Shown here: one piece after another, positions 31,675-39,713 of the stretch
Layout: each line of letters begins with the position of its first letter
Position numbering within the stretch: the stretch's first letter is position 1
Origin: an uncultured Acidobacteriota bacterium
GTDB taxonomy: Bacteria; Acidobacteriota; Vicinamibacteria; Vicinamibacterales; CAVVIG01
DNA length: 64,000 nt
NCBI GenBank assembly: GCA_963755195.1
Contig: CAVWIZ010000001.1
Span: forward strand, 969,352-1,033,351
Direction: 5' to 3'
Made by a program: the position numbers and the translations under genes
Notes under the pieces: model-generated
Databases searched by the model: none
What the model saw: the letters and a program-made list of their open reading frames with translations, nothing else
What the model was told of the DNA's origin: nothing

Positions 31675-32640
31675 ATGAAGCGGGCCTCGGCGCTCTACCG
31701 GCTGCTCGGCGACGAAGCGCGGTTGCGGCTGCTGCGTCTGCTCGCCCGCGAGCGTCTGAATGTCACCGAGCTGACGGGCATCATGGGTCTCGCGCAATCC
31801 GGTGTCTCCCGCCATCTCGGTCTCCTCAAAGATGCCGGGCTCGTCGTCGAAGAGAAGGATGCCGGGTTCACCTATTACCGCGCCGCGCCGCCGGACCCGT
31901 CCGACGCGGGCTTGTGGCCCATGCTCGACGCGCAGTTTCAAGCGGCCGATGCAGACACCACGGTGCGGGCTGACGCCGCGCGGCTGCAGGAAGTGTTGCG
32001 ACTTCGCCAGGAGAACTTCGAGACGCGCAGCAAAGCCAATCGGCAGGCGTGGCGGCAACTGGTGCCCGGCAGGAGCTGGGCCGCCTGGTCGCGCGCGCTC
32101 GGACTGTTGTTGCCGCCGCTCAAGGTCGCCGATCTTGGCTGCGGCGAAGGATATCTGACGATTGAAGCCGCGCGCTGGGCGTCACGCGTGATCGCCGTCG
32201 ATCGCTCCGAAGTCGTGCTCCAGCGGGCCCGCGTCGTGCGCAGCGCCGTCGTGTCTCGAACGTCATCTGGAAGAAGGGCGAGCTCGAAAAGCTGCCCATG
32301 CGCGATGCGACCGTCGACGTCGCACTCCTGTCGCAGGCGCTCCATCACGCCGGGCAGCCGGCCCTTGCGGTCGCGGAAGCCGCCCGCGTGACCGTGCCGG
32401 GCGGCCGCGTGCTGATCCTCAATCTCCGGACGCACGCCGAAGAGTGGGTGCGGGCCAAACTCGGCGACCGCGTGCTCGGATTTCGCGATCACGAATTGAA
32501 GCGCATGCTCGGCGCCGCCGGCCTGCGCGACATCAAGGTCGACGTCGGGGCTCGTAAAGACCGGCGACCCCTTCACGGTGCTGGTGGCCAGCGGGACCAA
32601 ACCCGGACCGCCGACCGCCGACAGAACATCGAGAAGATAG
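31675..32640 (+). CDS. Second ArsR-methyltransferase fusion; two apparent frameshifts (~32240, ~32557)
   Basis: QSGVSRHLGLL and DLGCGEG, then NVIWKKGELEKLP and LSQALHHA, then GDPFTVLVASG in successive frames. Confidence 0.7.
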
Positions 32641-32944
32641 CCTCCCGCCGAACCGCTCCACTGCACGGTTCTGCGCATCCTGATGCCAATGTCCATTGTG
32701 TAAGTTAAGACACTAGGGACATCTGATGTGTCTGTTGTCATGTATTTATATGACAGTAGAGAGCTCAGAATGCTATTGAGTGCTCTCTTTTGGGAACCGT
32801 GGTCCATATATGAACATATGGCCATTAAGTGTCTATTTAGCATGATATTATCGCCGTTATCGCGAGCAATTGTTGCTGTGACGTTCACAAACGGAGCATG
32901 GCCTGACGGTTGCGTGATCCAGTCGACTTCCTGGATGATATCTG

Positions 32945-33012: not shown

Positions 33013-33027
33013 CCCATGTATCTCGAC

Positions 33028-35365
33028 ATGACTTTATACGCGTTAGCTATCGCCGCCAACTCCAGAAGCAAGGCTGTCTGGAGCTCCAAGCGGATTCTTT
33101 CCACGGTACTCATTCTGACGTTCGCGTTTGCGTCAAGCGCGATGGCGGCGGGGCCTCGCAGCCGCGGCGGGCGTGTGCATCGGGTCGCCCCGAACAAAGT
33201 GCGCCCGGGCCGGCCGAATGCCTTCGTCCAGCCCTACAAGATGGATTCGCAGGTGACGTACCTTCTCGAGGATCGGGATCAAGAAAGATAAGACCAGCGT
33301 GATTGTGGAGCTGAAGGCGGGGGCCGAGGTGCCGTCGGAGTTCAGGTCGTTCGTGCGGCGGAACGGCGCGCTCCGCCTGATCCACGGCGTGGTGCTCGAC
33401 CTGCCGAACGACAAGATCGACAACATGGCCAAGCACAAGGACGTCTTCCGCGTCCACTACAACCGGCCCTTCTCGACCGAAAACTATCGGACGGCGCTGA
33501 CGTCGGGCACGCGCGTCGTGCAGCAGACGCTGGGGCTGACGGGCGCGGGCATCGGCGTCGCGGTGCTCGACTCCGGCATCACGAACTGGCACAACGACCT
33601 GACCAATCACGGGACGGGCACGTATCCCTACGGCAATCAGCGCGTCAGCGCGTTTGTGGACTTCGTCAACGGGCAGCTGAGCCCCTACGACGACCTGGGC
33701 CACGGCTCGCACGTGGCGGGGATCATCGCCGGCAACGGCGCGGATTCGAACGGCCAGAAAGCCGGCAGCGCGCCGGACGCGTCCCTGGTGGTCTTGAAAG
33801 TGCTGGACGCGCAGGGCGGCGGCACCATCGCCACCCTCATTCAGGCGCTCGACTGGGTGCTCCTCCACCACACGGAATACAACATCCGCGTCGTGAACAT
33901 GTCGGTCGGCGCGCAGATTCATGAATCGTACTGGACCGACCCGCTGACGCTGGCCACCAAGCGCGTGGTCGATGCGGGCGTGGTCGTCGTGGCCGCGGCC
34001 GGCAACTGGGGCAAACACCAGGACGGGACGCCCGTCTGGGGCGGCATCGCCGCGCCGGGCAACGCCCCGTGGGTCCTCACGGTCGGCGCCTCGAGCACCA
34101 ACGGCACCCCGACCCGCAGCGACGACACGCACGCGAGCTTCAGCTCGCGCGGGCCGACCTACCTCGACTGGGCCGCCAAGCCCGACCTGCTGGCGCCGGG
34201 CGCCGGCTCGGTCTCGCTGTCGGTGCCGGGCAGCACCTTCTACACGACGCGCGCCTCGTCGCTTCTGCCGGGCGCGGACACGAGCACCGGCGCGCTGCCG
34301 TACCTCTCCTTGAGCGGCACGAGCATGGCGACGCCGGTCGTCGCGGGCGTGGTCGCGCAGATGCTGCAGGCGAATCCGTCGCTGACACCGAACGCGGTGA
34401 AAGCGCTGCTGCAGTACACGGCGCAGGTCTACCCGGGGATTCGGCCGCTCGAACAGGGCGCGGGCTTCCTCAACGCGGTGGGCGCGGTGCGCCTGGCGCG
34501 CTTCTTCGCGACGGCGCAGCCGGGGCAGACGGTGCCCACGCAGAAGATGTGGAGCAAGCACATCATCTGGGGGAACCACCAGCTGCACGGCGGCCTGATC
34601 AACCCGGCCGCGAACGCGTTCCAGGTCGGCACGACGTGGGGCGTCGCCAAAACGGACGCCAACGACAACATCGTCTGGGGCACGGACTGCGGCGTCGACG
34701 GCTGCGACAACATCGTCTGGGGCACCGACGATCCCAACGACAACATCGTCTGGGGCACCTCCGATGACAACGACAACATCGTGTGGGGCACCGACGATGG
34801 CAACGACAACATCGTGTGGGGCACGGACTGCGGCGGCGGCGACTGCGACAACATCGTGTGGGGCACCGACGATAGCGACAACATCGTCTGGGGCACGGCC
34901 GACGCCAACGACAACATCGTGTGGGGCACGGCGGGGCTCAACGTCGACGACATCGTGTGGGGCACCGACGACGCCAGCGACAACATCGTGTGGGGCACCG
35001 ACGATAACGACAACATCGTGTGGGGCACCGACGACAGCGACAACATCGTGTGGGGCACCGACGACAACGACAACATCGTCTGGGGCACCGCCGATGACAG
35101 CGACAACATCGTGTGGGGCACCGACGACAGCAACGACAACATCGTGTGGGGCACCGATGACAACGACAACATCGTGTGGGGCACCGACGACAACGACAAC
35201 ATCGTGTGGGGCACCGCCGGCTCGCTCGTGCACGTCTGGGAAGCGTCGCCCGACGGGACGATTACCCCGCTCAACGGACCGACCGTGTTCGACAAATTCA
35301 CGGACAAGAAGCTCCTGCGTCTGACCCAATCGGTCCACGTGACGCCGCCGCCGTCTGGTAACTAA
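33028..35365 (+). CDS. Secreted S8 (subtilisin-like) peptidase with C-terminal D(N/D)IVWGT repeats; apparent frameshift near 33262
   Basis: Signal peptide ...ILSTVLILTFAFASSAMA in the short ORF 33016-33291. Catalytic VLDSG, HGSHVAG, AAGN and SGTSMATP in 33299-35365. Confidence 0.88.
34664..35215 (+). repeat. 17 coding repeats GAC(A/G)ACATCGT(G/C)TGGGGCAC with 9-21 nt in-frame spacers
   Basis: Counted in the translation: 16 DNIVWGT plus 1 DDIVWGT. Confidence 0.97.
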
Positions 35366-35388
35366 CCCCGGGCTAACAAGGGTCCATC

Positions 35389-36054
35389 ATGGAAAAGATG
35401 CCTTACAGCCCGGAACTGGACACGCAAGTGCTTCCAGTGCCAGACGGGCCGGTGACTAGCAGCGACTGGAGAAACGGTCTTCCGGTGCTGACCAGTGGTT
35501 GGGTCACACTGCGGGAACTGCGCGCCTCCGACGCCGCTTCGCTCTTCGCGCTGTTGACGACCGAGGAAGTCGCCCGATTCATTTCGCCGCCACCGTCCAC
35601 CGTCGAGGGATTCGAGAAGTTCATCGCGTGGACGCACCGGCAGCGCACCGCCGGCAGCTACGCCTGCTTCGCGGTGACGCTCAAGGGGTTCGACACGGCG
35701 GTCGGGATCTTCCAGATCCGCGGAGGCCACGCCGGACTCGAAACGGCCGAATGGGGCTTCGCGATCGGCTCGGCGTTCTGGGGCACCGGGGTGTTTCAGG
35801 CAGGCGCCGAGATGCTAATCGAGTTCGCCTTCGACACGCTCCACGTTCGTCGCCTCGAGGCCCGCGCCGCCGTGCAGAACGGCCGGGGCAACGGCGCGCT
35901 GAAGAAGGTGGGCGCCGTGCAGGAAGCCATCCTCCGGAGGTCGTTCGTCAAGAACGGCCGGATCTTCGACCAGGTCCTCTTTGCGATTCTCGAGAATGAC
36001 TGGCGGGCTGGACGTGAAGCCACACCGCTGAGGCATCACGAGCTCGTGCACTAA
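35389..36054 (+). CDS. GNAT N-acetyltransferase (RimJ/RimL-like)
   Basis: VTLREL, AEWGFAIG..FWGTG, RLEARAAVQN, KVGAVQE..LR. Confidence 0.88.
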   Translation: MEKMPYSPELDTQVLPVPDGPVTSSDWRNGLPVLTSGWVTLRELRASDAASLFALLTTEEVARFISPPPSTVEGFEKFIAWTHRQRTAGSYACFAVTLKGFDTAVGIFQIRGGHAGLETAEWGFAIGSAFWGTGVFQAGAEMLIEFAFDTLHVRRLEARAAVQNGRGNGALKKVGAVQEAILRRSFVKNGRIFDQVLFAILENDWRAGREATPLRHHELVH

Positions 36055-36083
36055 ACAATCGTTCACACCAACGGCGCCCGTCC

Positions 36084-36117
36084 GGGCCGGCCACAATCAC
36101 ATGGCCGGCCCTTTTTT
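36084..36117 (+). terminator. Rho-independent terminator after the S8-GNAT unit
   Basis: GGGCCGGCCA-loop-TGGCCGGCCC followed by TTTTTT. Confidence 0.85.
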
Positions 36118-36974
36118 CATGCAGTGGGCGGCGTGACTTCAACCGGCCGCGATGGTTCGCTCGACCACTCGCTCCATGAGCCCGCGTAGAGTCTGGCGCC
36201 GCGGAGGCCTGCGTGCTCGAGCGCGAGCAGGTTGTGGCAGGCCGTGACGCCTGAGCCACAGTAGGCAACAACCTGGTCCGCCGGCGCACCGTCGAAGGTT
36301 GCGGCGAACTTCTCGCGTAGCTCGCCGGCCGAACGAAACCCGCCCCGATCGTCGAGATTCTGCATGAAGAAGTGGTTGACGGCGCCTGGAATGTGTCCGG
36401 CGACTTTGTCGATCGGTTCGACTGCGCCTGTATAACGTTCGGGCGCCCGCGCGTCGACAAGACGCGCGCTCTTGTCGGCAACGAGCCGTGCCATCTCCCC
36501 CACATCAACGGCCATGCCTCCCAGGGGCAATCCACTGAAGACCTGTGGCGCGCGTGCCTCTGCTCCGGCCGACGTTGGACGCTGCTCGGTCAGCCACCTC
36601 GCGAACCCGCCGTCGAGCACCGCGACGCTGTCATGTCCCATCCATCGAAGCAGCCACCACAGACGGCTCGCAAACATGCCGCCGTCCTGGTCGTAGGCGA
36701 CCACCTGCACACCCTTGGCGATGCCGAACCGTCCGAGCGTGTCCGCCAATGTCTCCGGGGTGGGCAACGGGTGGCGGCCGTTGCGACCGGACAGTTCGCC
36801 GGAGAGATCCTTTGCGAGGTGCGCGTACACGGCGCCAGGGATGTGTCGCGACAGATACTCGCGTTCTCCCCATGCCTCGTCGTTCAGCGCGAAGCGGCAG
36901 TCGACGACGGCCCAGGCCTGATCTGACAGGTGGTTCGCGAGCGAGCTGGTGTCGACGAGCGTGGTGAACGCCAT
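36117..36974 (-). CDS. sseA: Sulfurtransferase (3-mercaptopyruvate sulfurtransferase/rhodanese)
   Basis: HIPGA twice, GRHPLP, RLWW, YCGSGVTA, YAGSWSEW. Confidence 0.9.
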   Translation of the reverse strand: MAFTTLVDTSSLANHLSDQAWAVVDCRFALNDEAWGEREYLSRHIPGAVYAHLAKDLSGELSGRNGRHPLPTPETLADTLGRFGIAKGVQVVAYDQDGGMFASRLWWLLRWMGHDSVAVLDGGFARWLTEQRPTSAGAEARAPQVFSGLPLGGMAVDVGEMARLVADKSARLVDARAPERYTGAVEPIDKVAGHIPGAVNHFFMQNLDDRGGFRSAGELREKFAATFDGAPADQVVAYCGSGVTACHNLLALEHAGLRGARLYAGSWSEWSSEPSRPVEVTPPTA

Positions 36975-37181: not shown

Positions 37182-39713
37182 ATGCGCCTGTCCGCCTTGC
37201 TCGTCGCTGCGCTCCTTTGTGCTCCCCCTGTGTGGGCGGCCGACGCCGCCAGGATCGACGCGACGCTCATCATCAGCTCCGACACCGGTCGGACCCCGAA
37301 CCAGGCCGTCTGGCGGACGATTCCAACCGTGGGCGGGTTCGTGCAGCGCGAGCCGCACGAAGGCGCCGAACCGAGTCAGGCGACGGAATTCAGCGTGGCG
37401 TTCGACGACACGATGCTGTACGTCAACGTGCATGCGTACGATCGCGAGCCCGACAAAATCGTCACCTATCTCACGCGTCGAGACGATGATTCACCCTGCG
37501 ACTGGATTCGCATATTCATCGATTCCTATCACGATCGCAAGACCGCGTACGAATTCGCGGTCAACCCGGACGGCGTCAAGCAGGATCGCTACTGGTTCAA
37601 CGACACGAACAACGACAAAAGCTGGGACGCCGTCTGGGATGTGACTGTCGCACGCGACCAGTCTGGCTGGTCCGCGCAGTTCCGCATTCCGTTTTCGCAG
37701 CTCCGATTCACAAAGGCGGCCGCGAACACGTTTGGCTTTGCCGTCGCGCGTGAAATCAGCCGGCTGAAGGAAACCACGACCTGGCCGCTGCTCGCTCGCA
37801 GCGCGCCTGGCTATGTCTCGTCGTTCGGTGAGGTCGCCGGACTGTCAACGACGGCCGCATCCAAACGGCTGGAAGTGACGCCGTATGCGGTCGCCAACCT
37901 CACCAGACAACCGACCGGCGGCAACCCGCTTCTGAGCGCCTCGGCGCCGGGCGGCGAACTCGGCGTGGACGTCAAGTATGCGCTGACGCCGGGGTTGACG
38001 CTGACCGCCACGGTGAATCCCGACTTCGGCCAGGTGGAGGCCGATCCGGCCGTTGTCAACCTCTCGGCCTTCGAAACCTTCTTTTCGGAGCAGCGGCCGT
38101 TTTTTGTCGAGGGCTCGGGCAACTTCCGCTTCGACGCCGACTGCTACGACGGCTGCAACAACCTGTTCTATTCGAGGCGGATCGGCCGTGCCCCGCAGGC
38201 GATCGTCAACCTGCCGTACGGCGACGCCATCTACACGGATTCGCCGGCCCAGACGGCCATCCTTGGGGCGGCCAAGGTGACGGGACGGGTGGGGCGCTAC
38301 GCCATCGGCGTGATGAACGCCGTCACGCGGGACGAGTTCGCCCGCGTGCTCATTGGATCGACCCCGTCGCGCCAGGCCGTTGAGCCCGCGTCGAACTACT
38401 TGGTGTCCCGCGTTCGGCGCGAGTTTGCGAACCAGTCGTACGTCGGCTTCATGGCGACGGCGGTCAACCGGGGGCAGAACGATGCGGCGAACATCCTGCC
38501 GGAAAGCGCTTATGTGGGTGGCATGGACTTCGACTGGCGTTTCCGAAAACGCTACAGCGTCAACGGTTTTTGGGAGGCCAGCCGTGTGAGCGGCCACGCA
38601 AGCGCGATCGAGAACGTTCAGAAGAGCAGCCGCCACAACTTTCAGCGACCCGATCTGACGAGCACGCAGCTGGATCCGACGCGCACGTCGCTCGCGGGCG
38701 GAGCCGGCGCCATCAGCGTCAGCAAGATCGGCGGCGAGTACGTCCGCTTCAACTCGAATTTCTACTTCCGGTCTCCGGGATTCGAAACCAACGACCTCGG
38801 ATTCCTGAGGCGCGCCGATCAGCGGCAGATGAGCAACTGGATTCAGTTTCGCAACGATCGGCCGTCGCGCTGGTTCCGCAACCGGGCCATCAACTTCAAT
38901 CAATGGGCGGGCTGGAATTTCGACGGCGACCGGCTCGGCAGCGGAGGCAACGTCAACGGCAACGTCACGTTCATCAACAACTGGCAGGCCGGCGGCGGCT
39001 TCGGCCCCCAGTTGGCGGGGCTCGACGATCGCGTGGCGCGAGGCGGTCCGGGCGTTCGCACCAACACCAACCGCGAGCAGTGGTTCTGGTTCTACTCCGA
39101 CAATCGCCGCCGGGTTTCGGCCGGCCTCGAAGGAGATGTCGGCGGTGACGGCCAGGGTTCATCGTGGCAGCAATTCGACCCCTCCGTCACGGTTCGTCCG
39201 ACGCCGGCGATCATGTTTTCGGTGGGTCCGCGCATCAACCGAAACGTCGCCGATGCACAGTGGGTCACCAACCTGACGGGAGAGCCGACACACTATGTGT
39301 TCGCGCACCTCGATCAGACGACTGTCTCGATGACGGCACGATTCAACTACACGATGACCCCCAACCTGTCGCTCCAGCTCTACGCGCAGCCGTTCGTTTC
39401 AGCCGGGGAGTACAACGCATTCAAGGAGATTGCCGACCCGCGCAACCCCGATTACAACCTGCGGTACGCACCGTTTGACTACGCGTACGACGCGTACGGC
39501 AACCCGGATTTCAACGTCAAGTCATTCAGGACGACCAACGTGCTGCGGTGGGAATACAAACCCGGATCGACGCTGTTCGTCGTCTGGCAGCAGGCGCGCT
39601 CGAATTACGCCGTGCCGGGCGGCTTCGAGATCGGCCGCGACGCTCGCGCGATTTTCGGCGTGCCCCCGCACAACGTCTTCCTCGTCAAAATCTCCTACTG
39701 GCTGAACTACTAG
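37182..39713 (+). CDS. CBM9-like/DUF5916-family outer-membrane protein
   Basis: Signal peptide, WDAVW, WSAQFRIPFSQLRF, TVNPDFGQVEAD, E.RPFF.EG, LFYSRRIG, C-terminal KISYW. Confidence 0.85.
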   Translation: MRLSALLVAALLCAPPVWAADAARIDATLIISSDTGRTPNQAVWRTIPTVGGFVQREPHEGAEPSQATEFSVAFDDTMLYVNVHAYDREPDKIVTYLTRRDDDSPCDWIRIFIDSYHDRKTAYEFAVNPDGVKQDRYWFNDTNNDKSWDAVWDVTVARDQSGWSAQFRIPFSQLRFTKAAANTFGFAVAREISRLKETTTWPLLARSAPGYVSSFGEVAGLSTTAASKRLEVTPYAVANLTRQPTGGNPLLSASAPGGELGVDVKYALTPGLTLTATVNPDFGQVEADPAVVNLSAFETFFSEQRPFFVEGSGNFRFDADCYDGCNNLFYSRRIGRAPQAIVNLPYGDAIYTDSPAQTAILGAAKVTGRVGRYAIGVMNAVTRDEFARVLIGSTPSRQAVEPASNYLVSRVRREFANQSYVGFMATAVNRGQNDAANILPESAYVGGMDFDWRFRKRYSVNGFWEASRVSGHASAIENVQKSSRHNFQRPDLTSTQLDPTRTSLAGGAGAISVSKIGGEYVRFNSNFYFRSPGFETNDLGFLRRADQRQMSNWIQFRNDRPSRWFRNRAINFNQWAGWNFDGDRLGSGGNVNGNVTFINNWQAGGGFGPQLAGLDDRVARGGPGVRTNTNREQWFWFYSDNRRRVSAGLEGDVGGDGQGSSWQQFDPSVTVRPTPAIMFSVGPRINRNVADAQWVTNLTGEPTHYVFAHLDQTTVSMTARFNYTMTPNLSLQLYAQPFVSAGEYNAFKEIADPRNPDYNLRYAPFDYAYDAYGNPDFNVKSFRTTNVLRWEYKPGSTLFVVWQQARSNYAVPGGFEIGRDARAIFGVPPHNVFLVKISYWLNY

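Follow-up and report, generated by a model that had tools for sequence, protein, structure and literature searches.

One copy of a conserved Vicinamibacterales cassette of two genes lies in the window, a stretch of 64,000 nucleotides from an uncultured member of this order. The first gene encodes an AprX/Tk-SP-type S8 subtilase with a signal-peptide-like N-terminus, a propeptide, and an open-ended C-terminal array; the second, tightly coupled downstream, encodes a cytoplasmic RimJ/RimL-type GNAT. The features of the locus are as follows.

33016..33291 (+), start also read at 33028: 5' part of the S8 gene, frame 1 (ORF list and translations)
33257..35365 (+): S8 open frame, 702 aa, frame 2, with propeptide, S8 catalytic domain, hhWG-repeat tail, and C-terminal cap
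33261..33262 (+): one extra C, CC versus C in the paralogue L002 (DNA alignment and stop-to-stop frames)
33542..34465 (+): Peptidase_S8 catalytic domain, aa 96-403 (Pfam PF00082, 1.4e-53)
33569-33571 (+): Asp105, catalytic triad
33701-33703 (+): His149, catalytic triad
34004-34006 (+): Asn250, oxyanion Asn
34322-34324 (+): Ser356, catalytic triad
34562..34642 (+): degenerate pre-array units, KHIIWGN ... GTTWGV, with invariant W/G columns, kept across the whole clade
34664..35215 (+): array of 17 D(N/D)IVWGT units (pattern count in the translation)
34685-34705 and 34826-34846 (+): two C-x4-C spacers within the array
35201..35329 (+): C-terminal cap after the last unit, strands and two helices, VHVWEASPDG...FDKFTDKKLLRLTQSV
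35389..36054 (+): GNAT, 221 aa, Acetyltransf_3 (PF13302), RimJ/RimL-like, cytoplasmic
36084..36117 (+): intrinsic-terminator-like hairpin and T-run, between the GNAT gene and a convergent rhodanese gene

The protease, its reading frame, and the GNAT

The catalytic domain belongs to the S8 (subtilase) family, scoring 182.6 bits against PF00082 (cutoff 21.8). DSG, GHGSH, GTSMA, and AAGN motifs surround the triad and the oxyanion Asn, and D105, H149, S356, and N250 are invariant in an alignment of 52 homologues. AF2 pLDDT was mostly 75 to 96 for this domain, and AF2 was also confident about a propeptide-like alpha/beta unit at aa 12-73, on which a Pfam search of the S8 protein found no I9 match. 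The nearest solved catalytic domains are Tk-SP of Thermococcus kodakarensis (PDB 3afg) and also 9ues (4.3e-46 and 2.4e-46), and JGI names many of the relatives "serine protease AprX." The anti-phage S8 family IteS scored 54.3 against a cutoff of 900, and PADLOC returned only generic subtilase and IetS partial matches, with none for the GNAT; identity with a known defence system was rejected on these grounds.

The initial annotation described a secreted subtilase with an intact D/H/S triad starting at 33028, preceded by an AVWS motif and followed after 23 bp by a GNAT and a terminator. Most of this description stood. The triad is intact, the GNAT starts 23 bp past the S8 stop, and a GC-rich hairpin of 10 pairs at 36084-36111 is followed by a T-run. 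The ORF at 33016-33291 carries SKAVWSSKR in its n-region, ahead of the hydrophobic segment ILSTVLILTFAFASSAMA and, by inspection, an AMA/AG cleavage-type site; intact relatives (e.g., P0002 and the paralogue L002) have homologous N-termini. Read by eye, the N-terminus appears signal-peptide-like. What did not stand is the single ORF. At 33261/33262 the window reads GACGTACCTT and the intact paralogue, 94% identical and from the same genome, reads GACGTA-CTT. The extra C places the signal-peptide part and the protease in different frames, so that the gene as assembled is not a single ORF from 33028. Because of the frameshift, the frame 1 ORF of the signal-peptide part closes at a TAA at 33289-33291; the protease frame is open only from 33257, and the database gene call takes GTG 33299 as its start (688 aa; P0001). 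An uninterrupted secreted-subtilase gene is found in the paralogue and in relatives and not in the window copy.

The one-base insertion is probably an assembly error. A frame change also splits the adjacent ArsR-methyltransferase gene, pointing to indels in the assembly; database entries of the S8 family often carry frame-shifted artefacts; and the 702-codon frame continues downstream without further lesion, its triad intact. That the insertion is real, the window copy a true pseudogene, and only the paralogue on another contig functional would agree with the frames as split in the present assembly and with the existence of a 94%-identical intact paralogue, and we consider it somewhat unlikely; such a status would in any case have no bearing on cassette function elsewhere. 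The premise that the window copy is secreted holds only if the frameshift is an assembly error. A programmed frameshift was rejected by inspection, with no slippery site or stall codon at 33261 and no extra base in the paralogue. Among public sequencing runs, none matched more than 0.14 of the sampled words of the stretch, and in four of them (three RNA libraries and one DNA; all contigs) cover near 33261 was sparse and no indel was listed there. The RNA libraries held short contigs 85 to 99% alike over the S8 domain, the array, and the GNAT, an observation that does not show transcription.

The GNAT belongs to Acetyltransf_3 (PF13302, 77.9 bits versus a cutoff of 25.4, 1.6e-21), and its nearest solved chains are 1nsl (4.6e-10), 2z0z (1.1e-9), and MccE (1.2e-4). 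It shares its Pfam family with RimJ/RimL, the MccE C-terminal domain, PA3944, and YdaF, and we know of no tie of any of these to S8 genes. It differs from RimJ and RimL in falling below the NCBIfam equivalog cutoffs (RimJ, NF008072, 22.2 versus 190; RimL, NF007539, 17.2 versus 184) and in carrying clade marks of its own in a 28-sequence alignment, namely, a MEKMP[YF] N-terminus, DWRxxLPVL, RFISPPP, and a C-terminal His. GNATs of the RimJ/RimL/MccE/PA3944 type acetylate free amines of peptides or aminoacyl-nucleotides.

The hhWG repeat tail

Exactly 17 heptads, 16 DNIVWGT and one DDIVWGT, were counted in the translation of frame 33257-35365. They are separated by spacers of 3 to 7 residues, which read in order DCGVDGC, DDPN, SDDN, DDGN, DCGGGDC, DDS, ADAN, AGLNV, DDAS, DDN, DDS, DDN, ADDS, DDSN, DDN, and DDN. 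The period is a regular 10 to 11 residues (Tandem Repeats Finder, 30, 33, and 63 nt), and the array has a net charge of about -47 over 184 residues, with neither Lys nor Arg. Two degenerate units precede it, IIWG at nt 34562-34573 and TTWG at nt 34631-34642. The initial annotation had read the tail in just this way, as 17 near-invariant heptapeptides with short spacers, two C-x4-C loops, and degenerate copies ahead of the array; it had also known of no described function for it, and our searches agree, since the tail matched none of the characterised repeat domains in Pfam, NCBIfam, or the PDB. By sequence, the PDB gave chance matches only (E of 0.25 and 1). No RTX-type family was found on the tail in Pfam at E ≤ 0.1, and Hexapep matched neither the window tail nor two zero-spacer tails (L096/L097). 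Literature searches of main texts for the repeat motif and for S8 proteases of Vicinamibacter gave nothing relevant among the matches listed.

Among the 120 best homologues the tail has 7 to 19 units by pattern, and up to 21 are found among relatives overall. Spacers in these 120 are mostly of 3 (566) or 4 (652) residues; in paralogues and relatives they run from 0 to about 17, and some relatives carry zero-spacer NIVWG[TN] hexapeptide arrays with a period of 6. The acidic character of the spacers is not conserved, many relatives having SAG or AG spacers, while the core, a hexapeptide x-x-[IV]-[IV]-W-G, is invariant. Cys loops lie before unit index 2 in 74/120 homologues and before index 6 in 85/120. 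Across orthologues of 60 to 75% identity, these loops, an AGLN-type spacer, and the cap hold fixed positions, and between the 94%-identical paralogues both unit count and sequence are stable.

Neither of two predictors folded the array confidently. AF2 gave it a pLDDT of 25 to 35 within the whole S8 protein (52 sequences) and 38 to 58 for the tail alone (63 sequences), and ESMFold2 gave a confidence of 34 to 48. In the tail-only model, the first eight NIVWG units each form a strand, with a pLDDT of only 51 to 58. The cap reached 64 to 86 in the whole-protein model and 87 to 91 in the tail-only model. Foldseek found no match of the tail model in the PDB at E ≤ 0.001; beta-helix and RTX chains in rows at E > 1 were discarded as evidence. 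Sequence look-alikes in the ESM Atlas came from Acidobacteriota clusters only, with Pfam Hexapep in 16% and 28% of the members of look-alike clusters, which we take as a lead only. The Hexapep left-handed beta-helix (PF00132) may be compared with the uninterrupted NIVWG[TN] hexapeptides of the relatives. Its family consensus is [LIV]-[GAED]-x2-[STAV]-x; by inspection, this fits the repeat unit at i (Ile) and i+4 (Thr) only, and the unit differs in having Val instead of a small residue at i+1 and a Trp in every copy. The array also sits on a protease and not, as in Hexapep proteins, on an acyltransferase.

The regular period, the fixed Cys loops, and the confident C-terminal cap favour a folded domain; the invariant hexapeptide with spacers of 0 to 17 residues, the lack of Lys in the array, and the low fold confidence favour a linear motif or peptide.

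Pairing of protease and GNAT across genomes

A search for S8 homologues scored 8,000 candidates, 7,367 of which were relatives, and all 12 full-length relatives inspected carry DNI[VI]WGT arrays. With the tail alone as query, 755 representative clusters were matched. In the best 150 of these 755, all proteins in which the repeats are preceded by more than about 100 residues are S8 proteases, and the tail appears, from sequence comparison, to be confined to one S8 clade, mainly of Vicinamibacterales.

Presence of the GNAT follows array length. In 71 usable loci, the GNAT lies downstream in 32 of the 37 with at least 7 units, in none of the 8 with 1 to 6 units, and in none of the 26 with 0 units; none of the 34 with fewer than 7, sister subclade included, has it. 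The GNAT is in this respect a conserved neighbour of long arrays, and the same pairing supports the proposal of the initial annotation that the two genes may form one transcription unit. The GNAT is present in 59 of the 61 tail-positive genomes among 151 of Vicinamibacterales, many of which hold one to several cassette copies. The two genes lie no more than 23 bp apart or overlap. All three long-array S8 genes of the source genome keep a GNAT of their own, even in a divergent pair whose S8 proteins are only 42% and GNATs 54% identical, and in a quick IQ-TREE tree of the S8 proteins the pairing spans two clades. Tandem S8-GNAT-S8-GNAT blocks indicate that the cassette duplicates as a whole. Neither repeat units nor a GNAT occur in the Bacillota AprX-like loci that were examined. 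Apparent S8-GNAT fusion proteins (P0136, P0140, P0164, P0201, L015, and L045) proved to be frameshift or N-gap artefacts.

Other neighbours include a membrane sensor. Short-tailed sister S8 genes are immediately followed by genes of MASE9 membrane sensors, whose outputs are of the HD-GYP, GGDEF, or histidine-kinase type, and a fourth paralogue of the GNAT family adjoins a MASE9 sensor; the ligand of MASE9 is not known, according to a preprint. A small KAVWG-coding ORF at the start of MASE9 genes occurred in only two loci (L031 and L039) and was rejected as a shared feature. In "GNAT-only" genomes, three of five places hold GNAT-family genes away from S8. Clustering of the neighbours of 42 loci yielded no transporter or known RiPP enzyme as a conserved neighbour, and no curli- or Fap-type secretion genes were seen among them; an ORF of the ABC peptide-binding type, judged by eye from sequence, lies upstream in 9 of the 42.

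We also modelled the GNAT with CoA and tail residues 146-226. The complex scored 0.33 (runs of 0.40, 0.29, and 0.33) and the best of three controls 0.01; the runs shared at least 34% of contacts, with a partner pLDDT of 34 to 35. The pass mark is one reached by 58/80 solved complexes and 2/110 mismatched pairs, and only 7/80 solved complexes passed at scores ≤ 0.60, together with both passing mismatches. The predicted contact is a weak pass that, by this calibration, would be more often wrong than right unless already likely. K-A-V-W-G-P-K-like motifs occur in the S8 n-region of 79/120 homologues and at the GNAT C-terminus of 15/46 ORFs. A rule of one such Lys-flanked VWG motif per cassette was not supported: of 31 cassettes, 8 carry it on the S8 alone, 6 on the GNAT alone, and 3 on both partners, and 14 lack it altogether.

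Readings of the cassette

The initial annotation had offered two readings, a self-processing multi-core peptide precursor with the GNAT as modifier or sensor, or a Ca-binding beta-solenoid or amyloid-like anchor. Our favoured reading, held tentatively, is that the tail folds outside the cell into a beta-helix-like repeat domain and that the cytoplasmic GNAT handles the precursor of this domain or peptides derived from it. The tail would be a beta-rich, elongated domain of the beta-helix or beta-roll type in which every IVW makes up one short strand and the corners consist of G/T/D/N residues; the variable spacers would be corner loops (two of them stapled by disulfides), and the small alpha/beta cap would close the end. 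It would fold only after export, in the source lineage perhaps needing Ca2+ on its Asp-rich loops, and would stay on the protease, where exposed Ile/Trp ladders could serve to bind or anchor it on a surface or polymer or on itself. In the cytoplasm, the substrate of the GNAT would be the precursor before it folds, or peptides derived from that precursor. Counting against this reading, the Lys-free array offers no obvious acceptor on the intact tail for a canonical N-acetyltransferase. The low fold confidence, the missing database matches, the spacers of 0 to about 17 residues, the unconserved acidity of the spacers, the GNAT-family genes away from S8, and the weak complex score also count against it.

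The C-terminal extension of Tk-SP and AprX-type subtilases is a beta-jelly-roll or absent; these enzymes resemble the cassette protease in S8 domain, N-terminal propeptide, and possession of a C-terminal extension and differ in lacking the hhWG array. The logic of the favoured reading would be that of RTX toxin operons, in which a GNAT-fold acyltransferase gene lies beside the gene of an exported repeat protein. According to one report (PMC8339906), RtxC/ApxIC acyltransferases have a GNAT-like fold and act before export, and the gene of such a dedicated cytoplasmic enzyme (RtxC/HlyC type) neighbours that of an exported repeat protein, which is acidic, rich in Gly/Asp, and short in period. By inspection, the RTX make-up of turns and 3-residue strands is also alike. 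The differences are plain, however: RTX repeats are GGxGxDxUx nonapeptides of period 9, whereas the S8 tail has a period of 10 to 11 (6 in relatives), lacks GGxGxD, and has no Pfam RTX match; RTX proteins carry a C-terminal type I secretion signal and the S8 homologues an N-terminal signal-peptide-like segment; the partner is a canonical Acetyltransf_3 GNAT and not RtxC; and neither the array nor its surroundings hold a conserved acceptor Lys.

Alternatively, the array could be a multi-copy peptide precursor fused to its own protease, with the cytoplasmic GNAT N-acetylating the re-imported peptide, which we rate as unlikely. The S8 enzyme or a partner protease would cut the exported array, e.g., after each Trp, to release IVW peptides acting as signal or toxin, and acetylation of the free amino terminus would quench the signal, give immunity, or mark the peptide. 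An invariant core amid spacers of varied length and composition, a unit number of 7 to 21, low fold confidence in two predictors, and a GNAT that goes with long arrays only are all consistent with such a precursor, as are MASE9 sensors beside the short-tailed sister genes and the upstream peptide-binding-type ORF at some loci. The type of the nearest solved GNATs fits too, free amines arising in a Lys-free array only via proteolysis. The fixed Cys loops, AGLN-type spacer, and cap, on the other hand, are what a stable folded domain typically shows; no cleavage motif is conserved in the spacers, and unit count and sequence do not drift between close paralogues. Transporters and known RiPP enzymes are not among the conserved neighbours, and an import step has to be assumed, the GNAT being cytoplasmic and the peptides outside. 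Multi-core precursors such as cyanobactin PatE, yeast alpha-factor, and fungal Kex2-processed repeat precursors likewise have tandem identical short cores, variable linkers, and an S8-family processing protease; they differ in that here the array is fused to the protease and no recognition sequences flank the cores, and the cyanobactin PatA/G model scored 40.3 on the S8 protein against a cutoff of 421. Still more doubtful is a new peptide system in which the protease cuts its own multi-copy payload into identical Trp-containing hexa- to decapeptides that are sensed at or in the membrane or hit competitors, with the GNAT as quencher or immunity factor; membrane sensing is suggested because MASE9 sensors replace the GNAT in the sister clade.

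That the IVW units stack between molecules into a self-assembling or amyloid-like matrix anchor, immobilising the protease in biofilm or on the cell surface, seems improbable. The core is strongly beta-aggregating in make-up, with N/G/T turns, and the number of units has no fixed limit; before export, aggregation would then be prevented by the GNAT or by the Lys-flanked VWG motif at the S8 N-terminus or GNAT C-terminus, in line with the frequency of that motif and the weak modelled GNAT-tail contact. The conserved cap argues instead for a capped monomeric solenoid, nearly half of the cassettes surveyed (14/31) have the motif on neither partner, and curli- or Fap-type genes were not among the neighbours. 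We think it equally improbable that no direct biochemical connection exists between GNAT and protease and that the pair is kept only by co-regulation or inheritance as a duplicated block. Whole-block tandem duplication, GNAT relatives with no S8 nearby, and the lack of an identified acceptor residue speak for this. Against it, the pairing outlives deep divergence within one genome, spans two S8 clades and 32/37 long-array loci at spacings of 23 bp or less or with overlap, and occurs in none of the 34 loci with fewer units, sister subclade included.

Vicinamibacterales are abundant, poorly cultured soil bacteria. In the best 150 of 755 tail matches, the hhWG array forms a large lineage-restricted repeat family with no Pfam, NCBIfam, or PDB model, and in the literature searched no counterpart is described for so strict a coupling of a cytoplasmic acetyltransferase to an exported protease. 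If the tail is a new type of beta-helix with Trp ladders, it would add a fold and a binding principle; a self-released peptide array would amount to a new way of making signals or toxins. The S8 clade, the GNAT, and MASE9 sensors are linked three ways, which offers a first genomic handle on MASE9.

The S8 gene, its array and a frame break

The initial annotation described one secreted subtilase gene. Its subtilase part stands: a Pfam search of the S8 frame placed a Peptidase_S8 domain at aa 96-403 (182.6 bits), and the catalytic triad, claimed to be intact, is invariant (D105, H149, and S356, together with N250) in an alignment of 52 relatives. The single gene does not stand, in that the signal-peptide part lies in frame 1 and the protease in frame 2.

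Features of the S8 locus and its surroundings
31675-32391: ORF, first piece of the ArsR-methyltransferase gene, Methyltransf_11 profile positions 2-35
32298-32708: ORF, second piece of the same gene, Methyltransf_11 profile positions 57-95
33016/33028-33291, + strand: signal-peptide part, frame 1, ending at TAA
33257-35365, + strand: S8 open frame, 702 codons, frame 2
33261/33262, + strand: extra C (CC versus C in the paralogue), from DNA alignment with the paralogue
34664-35215, + strand: array of 17 heptads (16 DNIVWGT and 1 DDIVWGT), read from the translation
35389-36054, + strand: GNAT gene, 221 aa, PF13302, 77.9 bits
36084-36111: hairpin of 10 pairs with a T-run, downstream of the GNAT gene and common to the convergent rhodanese gene

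The window occupies 969352-1033351 of contig 1 (G000:C1) in a 6.66-Mb, 8-contig genome. The paralogue, an intact gene on contig 7, encodes 779 aa, is 94% identical, and reads ...DSQLTYFSRYGARNAKTSVIVELK...; alignment with it locates the extra C that parts the signal-peptide portion from the protease frame. Because of this single base, the public gene call (P0001) takes GTG 33299 as its start and has no signal peptide. A second break lies less than 1 kb away, where a gene for an ArsR-family HTH and SAM-methyltransferase protein (31675-32708) is likewise broken between two frames, and two breaks within 1 kb suggest assembly indels. Since this neighbor is split alike and frame-shifted entries are visibly many among database records of this S8 family, we think that an assembly indel is a likelier cause than a pseudogene. 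The best public run contains at most 0.14 of the sampled words of the S8 stretch, and the four sequencing runs compared near 33261 gave sparse cover and listed no indel. The intactness of this S8 copy hinges on one base.

Within the protease frame, the translation contains exactly the 17 near-invariant heptapeptides that had been described, with spacers of 3 to 7 residues, two of which are C-x4-C loops, and the degenerate copies said to precede them (IIWG and TTWG). Tandem Repeats Finder returned periods of 30, 33, and 63 nt, and DNA differences among the units are nearly confined to the third base of Val and Thr codons. Among the 184 residues of the array are 47 Asp, 0 Lys, and 0 Arg. The GNAT gene starts 23 bp beyond the S8 stop and is followed by the hairpin with its T-run, in agreement with the spacing and terminator first proposed. 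Three freshwater metatranscriptome libraries (runs X18-X20) hold many short contig pieces 85 to 99% alike to 33300-36100, matching the S8 gene, array, and GNAT gene, a likeness of sequence that is no proof of transcription.

Spread and variants of the array family

Among 8,000 candidates scored with the whole S8 protein, 7,367 were relatives; the best 120 of these are 650 to 1,022 aa long, are 61 to 100% identical, and are named in their sources only "S8 family peptidase" or "serine protease AprX." All 12 full-length relatives inspected have DNI[VI]WGT arrays, a DCGGADC loop in the same position, and a similar C-terminal end. In the best 120, units number 7 to 19 per protein (median, 15), the commonest spacers are 3 (566) or 4 (652) residues long, and two-Cys spacers stand ahead of unit index 2 in 74 and of index 6 in 85. 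The logo of their 1,826 units (D, 1,577; N, 1,676; I, 1,753; V, 1,608; W, 1,826; G, 1,809; T, 1,580) and the variants EHIVWG, DSVIWG, DRVIWG, and spacer-free NIVWGT runs have as their core element the hexapeptide x-x-[IV]-[IV]-W-G. Arrays without any spacers (NIVWGT x10, NIVWG[NSE], and DRVIWG) occur at loci L096:1635-3608 (-), L097:1310-3217 (+), L060, and L070; the L096 and L097 S8 genes both have a GNAT gene downstream, and their genomes escaped the phmmer tail query.

Past the C-terminal cap, many homologues (P0002-P0120) continue with a Pro/Thr-rich low-complexity stretch and a G-G-[LFI] terminus (GGL in 24, GGF in 17, and GGI in 5 of 120), possibly a signal for sorting or processing. The S8 protein of the window terminates early (...PPPSGN).

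A tail-only search of 1.84 billion representatives found 755 clusters at an E value of ≤1e-3 and 334 at ≤1e-10. Among the best 150 of the 755 matches, every protein with more than ∼100 residues ahead of the first unit is an S8 protease; six doubtful cases and four apparent S8-GNAT fusions in this set proved to be S8 ends or frame-shift artifacts. The tail was present in 17 of 401 genomes sampled across the phylum, 15 of them from the order of the window, and in 61 of 151 genomes sampled within that order. It had no match in Pfam or NCBIfam or among PDB sequences (best E value, 0.25) and no membership in a known defense system, and a full-text literature search turned up NIVWG in one unrelated paper only, which bears out the statement that no function had been described for such a tail. 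The cassette is real and conserved, and it is undescribed in the sources searchable here.

GNAT and MASE9-type neighbors

The window's genome has three long-array S8 genes, each with its own GNAT gene directly after it: in the contig 7 pair the gap is 30 bp, and in a divergent contig 1 pair (S8, 42%, and GNAT, 54% identical) the S8 stop overlaps the GNAT start. We surveyed 80 loci from one-genome-per-species contigs, counting, in all three frames, the hhWG units that come behind the S8 domain and seeking a GNAT gene downstream on the same strand; 71 loci had at least 1,000 nt past the last unit.

Genes downstream of S8 by number of hhWG units; the counts are descriptive, because relatives are not independent
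At least 7 units: 37 loci; GNAT, 32; MASE9-type sensor, 2; neither, 3
1-6 units: 8 loci; GNAT, 0; MASE9-type sensor, 6; neither, 2
0 units: 26 loci; GNAT, 0; MASE9-type sensor, 3; neither, 23

The proposed pairing thus recurs as a conserved neighborhood, with GNAT downstream in 32 of 37 loci with at least 7 units versus 0 of 34 with fewer. In the 151 genomes of the order, tail and GNAT occur together in 59, the tail only in 2, GNAT only in 32, and neither in 58. At least two of the "GNAT-only" genomes do possess an S8-GNAT pair with an unbroken NIVWGT or NIVWGN run, missed by the tail query; three other GNAT places from such genomes had no S8 gene within the stretch examined. In a quickly built tree of the catalytic domains (78 rows), a 37-row clade (SH-aLRT, 100) divides into two subclades: of the 28 rows in one, 26 have a GNAT gene in the locus and 2 break off where their contigs end; of the 9 rows in the other, 8 have a locus with a MASE9 sensor. 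The same tree has a second, more divergent clade, which bears arrays, and a group of array-free Bacillota AprX-like genes.

S8-GNAT-S8-GNAT tandem blocks are frequent (e.g., loci L011, L014, L018, L022, L036, L041, and L080 and contigs G411:C2, G421:C5, G451:C6, and G511:C7). Downstream in the window, a convergent tandem-rhodanese protein (36117-36974, -) and an 843-aa DUF5916/CBM9-like protein whose start resembles a signal peptide (37182-39713, +) are not conserved neighbors of the cassette.

In short-tailed S8 genes, (E/D)TVVWG units number 0 to 7 and the CGGADC loop recurs. Directly after these genes come membrane proteins that match Pfam MASE9 and have HD-GYP, either alone or joined by GAF-GGDEF; where the N-terminal membrane module is a related one, the output is a hybrid histidine kinase instead. 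The fourth S8 gene of the window's genome has DSVIWGE units and a MASE9-HD protein downstream. A fourth GNAT paralogue, 38% identical to that of the window, has a MASE9-HD-GYP gene directly downstream and no adjacent S8 gene (L091, G000:C8:349604-353215). From the short-tailed S8-MASE9 and GNAT-MASE9 neighbor pairs, therefore, the S8 clade, the GNAT clade, and the MASE9-type sensors are three families keeping company. In the preprint that defines MASE9, the proposed site of ligand binding is within the membrane, and no known ligand is reported.

S8 genes of this family that have a short tail or none, with a MASE9-type sensor directly downstream, occur at L028-L031, L034, L035, L039, L043, L051, L052, and L057; the sensor output varies among HD-GYP, HD-GYP-GAF-GGDEF, and hybrid histidine kinase, and an S8-sensor case from the window's genome is L003 (G000:C8:652820-656998). 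Upstream of S8 in L031 and L039 is a putative sigma-54-type activator, its type judged by eye from the translation. At L070:768-3490, a GNAT-sensor pair stands 2 kb upstream of an S8 gene with a DRVIWG array.

Proposed fold of the tail and action of the GNAT

The 10- to 11-residue period, very regular in the window's clade, counted for a folded, elongated, probably open-ended tail domain, as did the fixed positions of the Cys loops and odd spacers among 60 to 75%-identical orthologues and the well-predicted C-terminal cap (AF2 pLDDT, 87 to 91). Counted on the same side were the strands that a tail-only AF2 model gives NIVWG units 1 to 8, one per unit (pLDDT, 51 to 58), and the unbroken spread of unit counts, which speaks against a closed fold. 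Counted against a folded domain were the low array pLDDT values (AF2, 25 to 35 in the whole protein and 38 to 58 for the tail alone; ESMFold2, 34 to 48), the absence of any Foldseek match to the tail model in PDB at an E value of ≤0.001, and spacers of 0 to ∼17 residues, which equally suit a repeated linear motif. The spacer-free array agrees with the hexapeptide β-helix consensus in two of the three positions that define it; Pfam Hexapep is found in 16% and 28% of the members of Atlas look-alike clusters and had no match on the tails tested.

The GNAT is, by its sequence, cytoplasmic, because an alignment of 28 family members reveals no signal peptide. It scores under both the RimJ and RimL equivalog cutoffs, and its nearest solved relatives are 1nsl, 2z0z, PA3270, PA3944, and MccE. 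The clade is marked by an MEKMP[YF] start, DWRxxLPVL, RFISPPP, and a C-terminal His, which is present in nearly all 28 (window, 36049-36051); in S8-linked members of the window's subclade, the invariant MEKMP[YF] (window, 35389-35406) is followed by a variable linker of 15 to 30 residues. The window array has no Lys for the GNAT to use. A predicted complex of GNAT, CoA, and tail residues 146-226 scored 0.33 (runs, 0.40, 0.29, and 0.33; best control, 0.01), with contact agreement of at least 34% and partner pLDDT of 34 to 35. Of 80 solved complexes, 58 reach the mark for such scores, as do 2 of 110 mismatched pairs; with a score of 0.60 or under, it is reached by 7 of the 80 and both passing mismatches. 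The result lends weak support to a GNAT-tail contact, because a pass of this kind is in most cases an error if the contact was not likely beforehand.

Of 120 homologues, 79 carry a Lys-flanked VWG motif (KAVWGPK) in the signal-peptide n-region of S8; the AVWS noticed near the signal peptide of the window belongs to its version, SKAVWSSK (33070-33093). The motif also forms the extreme C terminus (...AKAVWGPKLH-stop) of 15 of 46 GNAT ORFs (e.g., L011:8780-8807, L013:8525-8552, and the GNAT end of L002, the contig 7 paralogue locus). It is conserved as protein, because codon third positions vary freely. Among 31 cassettes it is in S8 only in 8, in GNAT only in 6, in both in 3, and in neither in 14, and because of these 14 it is not obligatory.

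The main rival among readings of the cassette is that the array is, as first proposed, a self-processed, multicopy peptide; we consider this unlikely, and it nevertheless has real weight because of the sister clade's link to sensors and the Lys-free array. Two minor proposals seem improbable to us: that the tail is a self-assembling anchor, to which we give little credence, and, with equally slim prospects, that the GNAT is tied to S8 by coinheritance only. We tentatively favor a repeat domain kept on the protease: the tail would fold after export into a β-helix or β-roll-like structure and remain attached to the protease, and the GNAT would have the precursor, or peptides from it, as its cytoplasmic target, for which the action of RtxC on RTX proteins, as set out in PMC8339906, may serve as a model.
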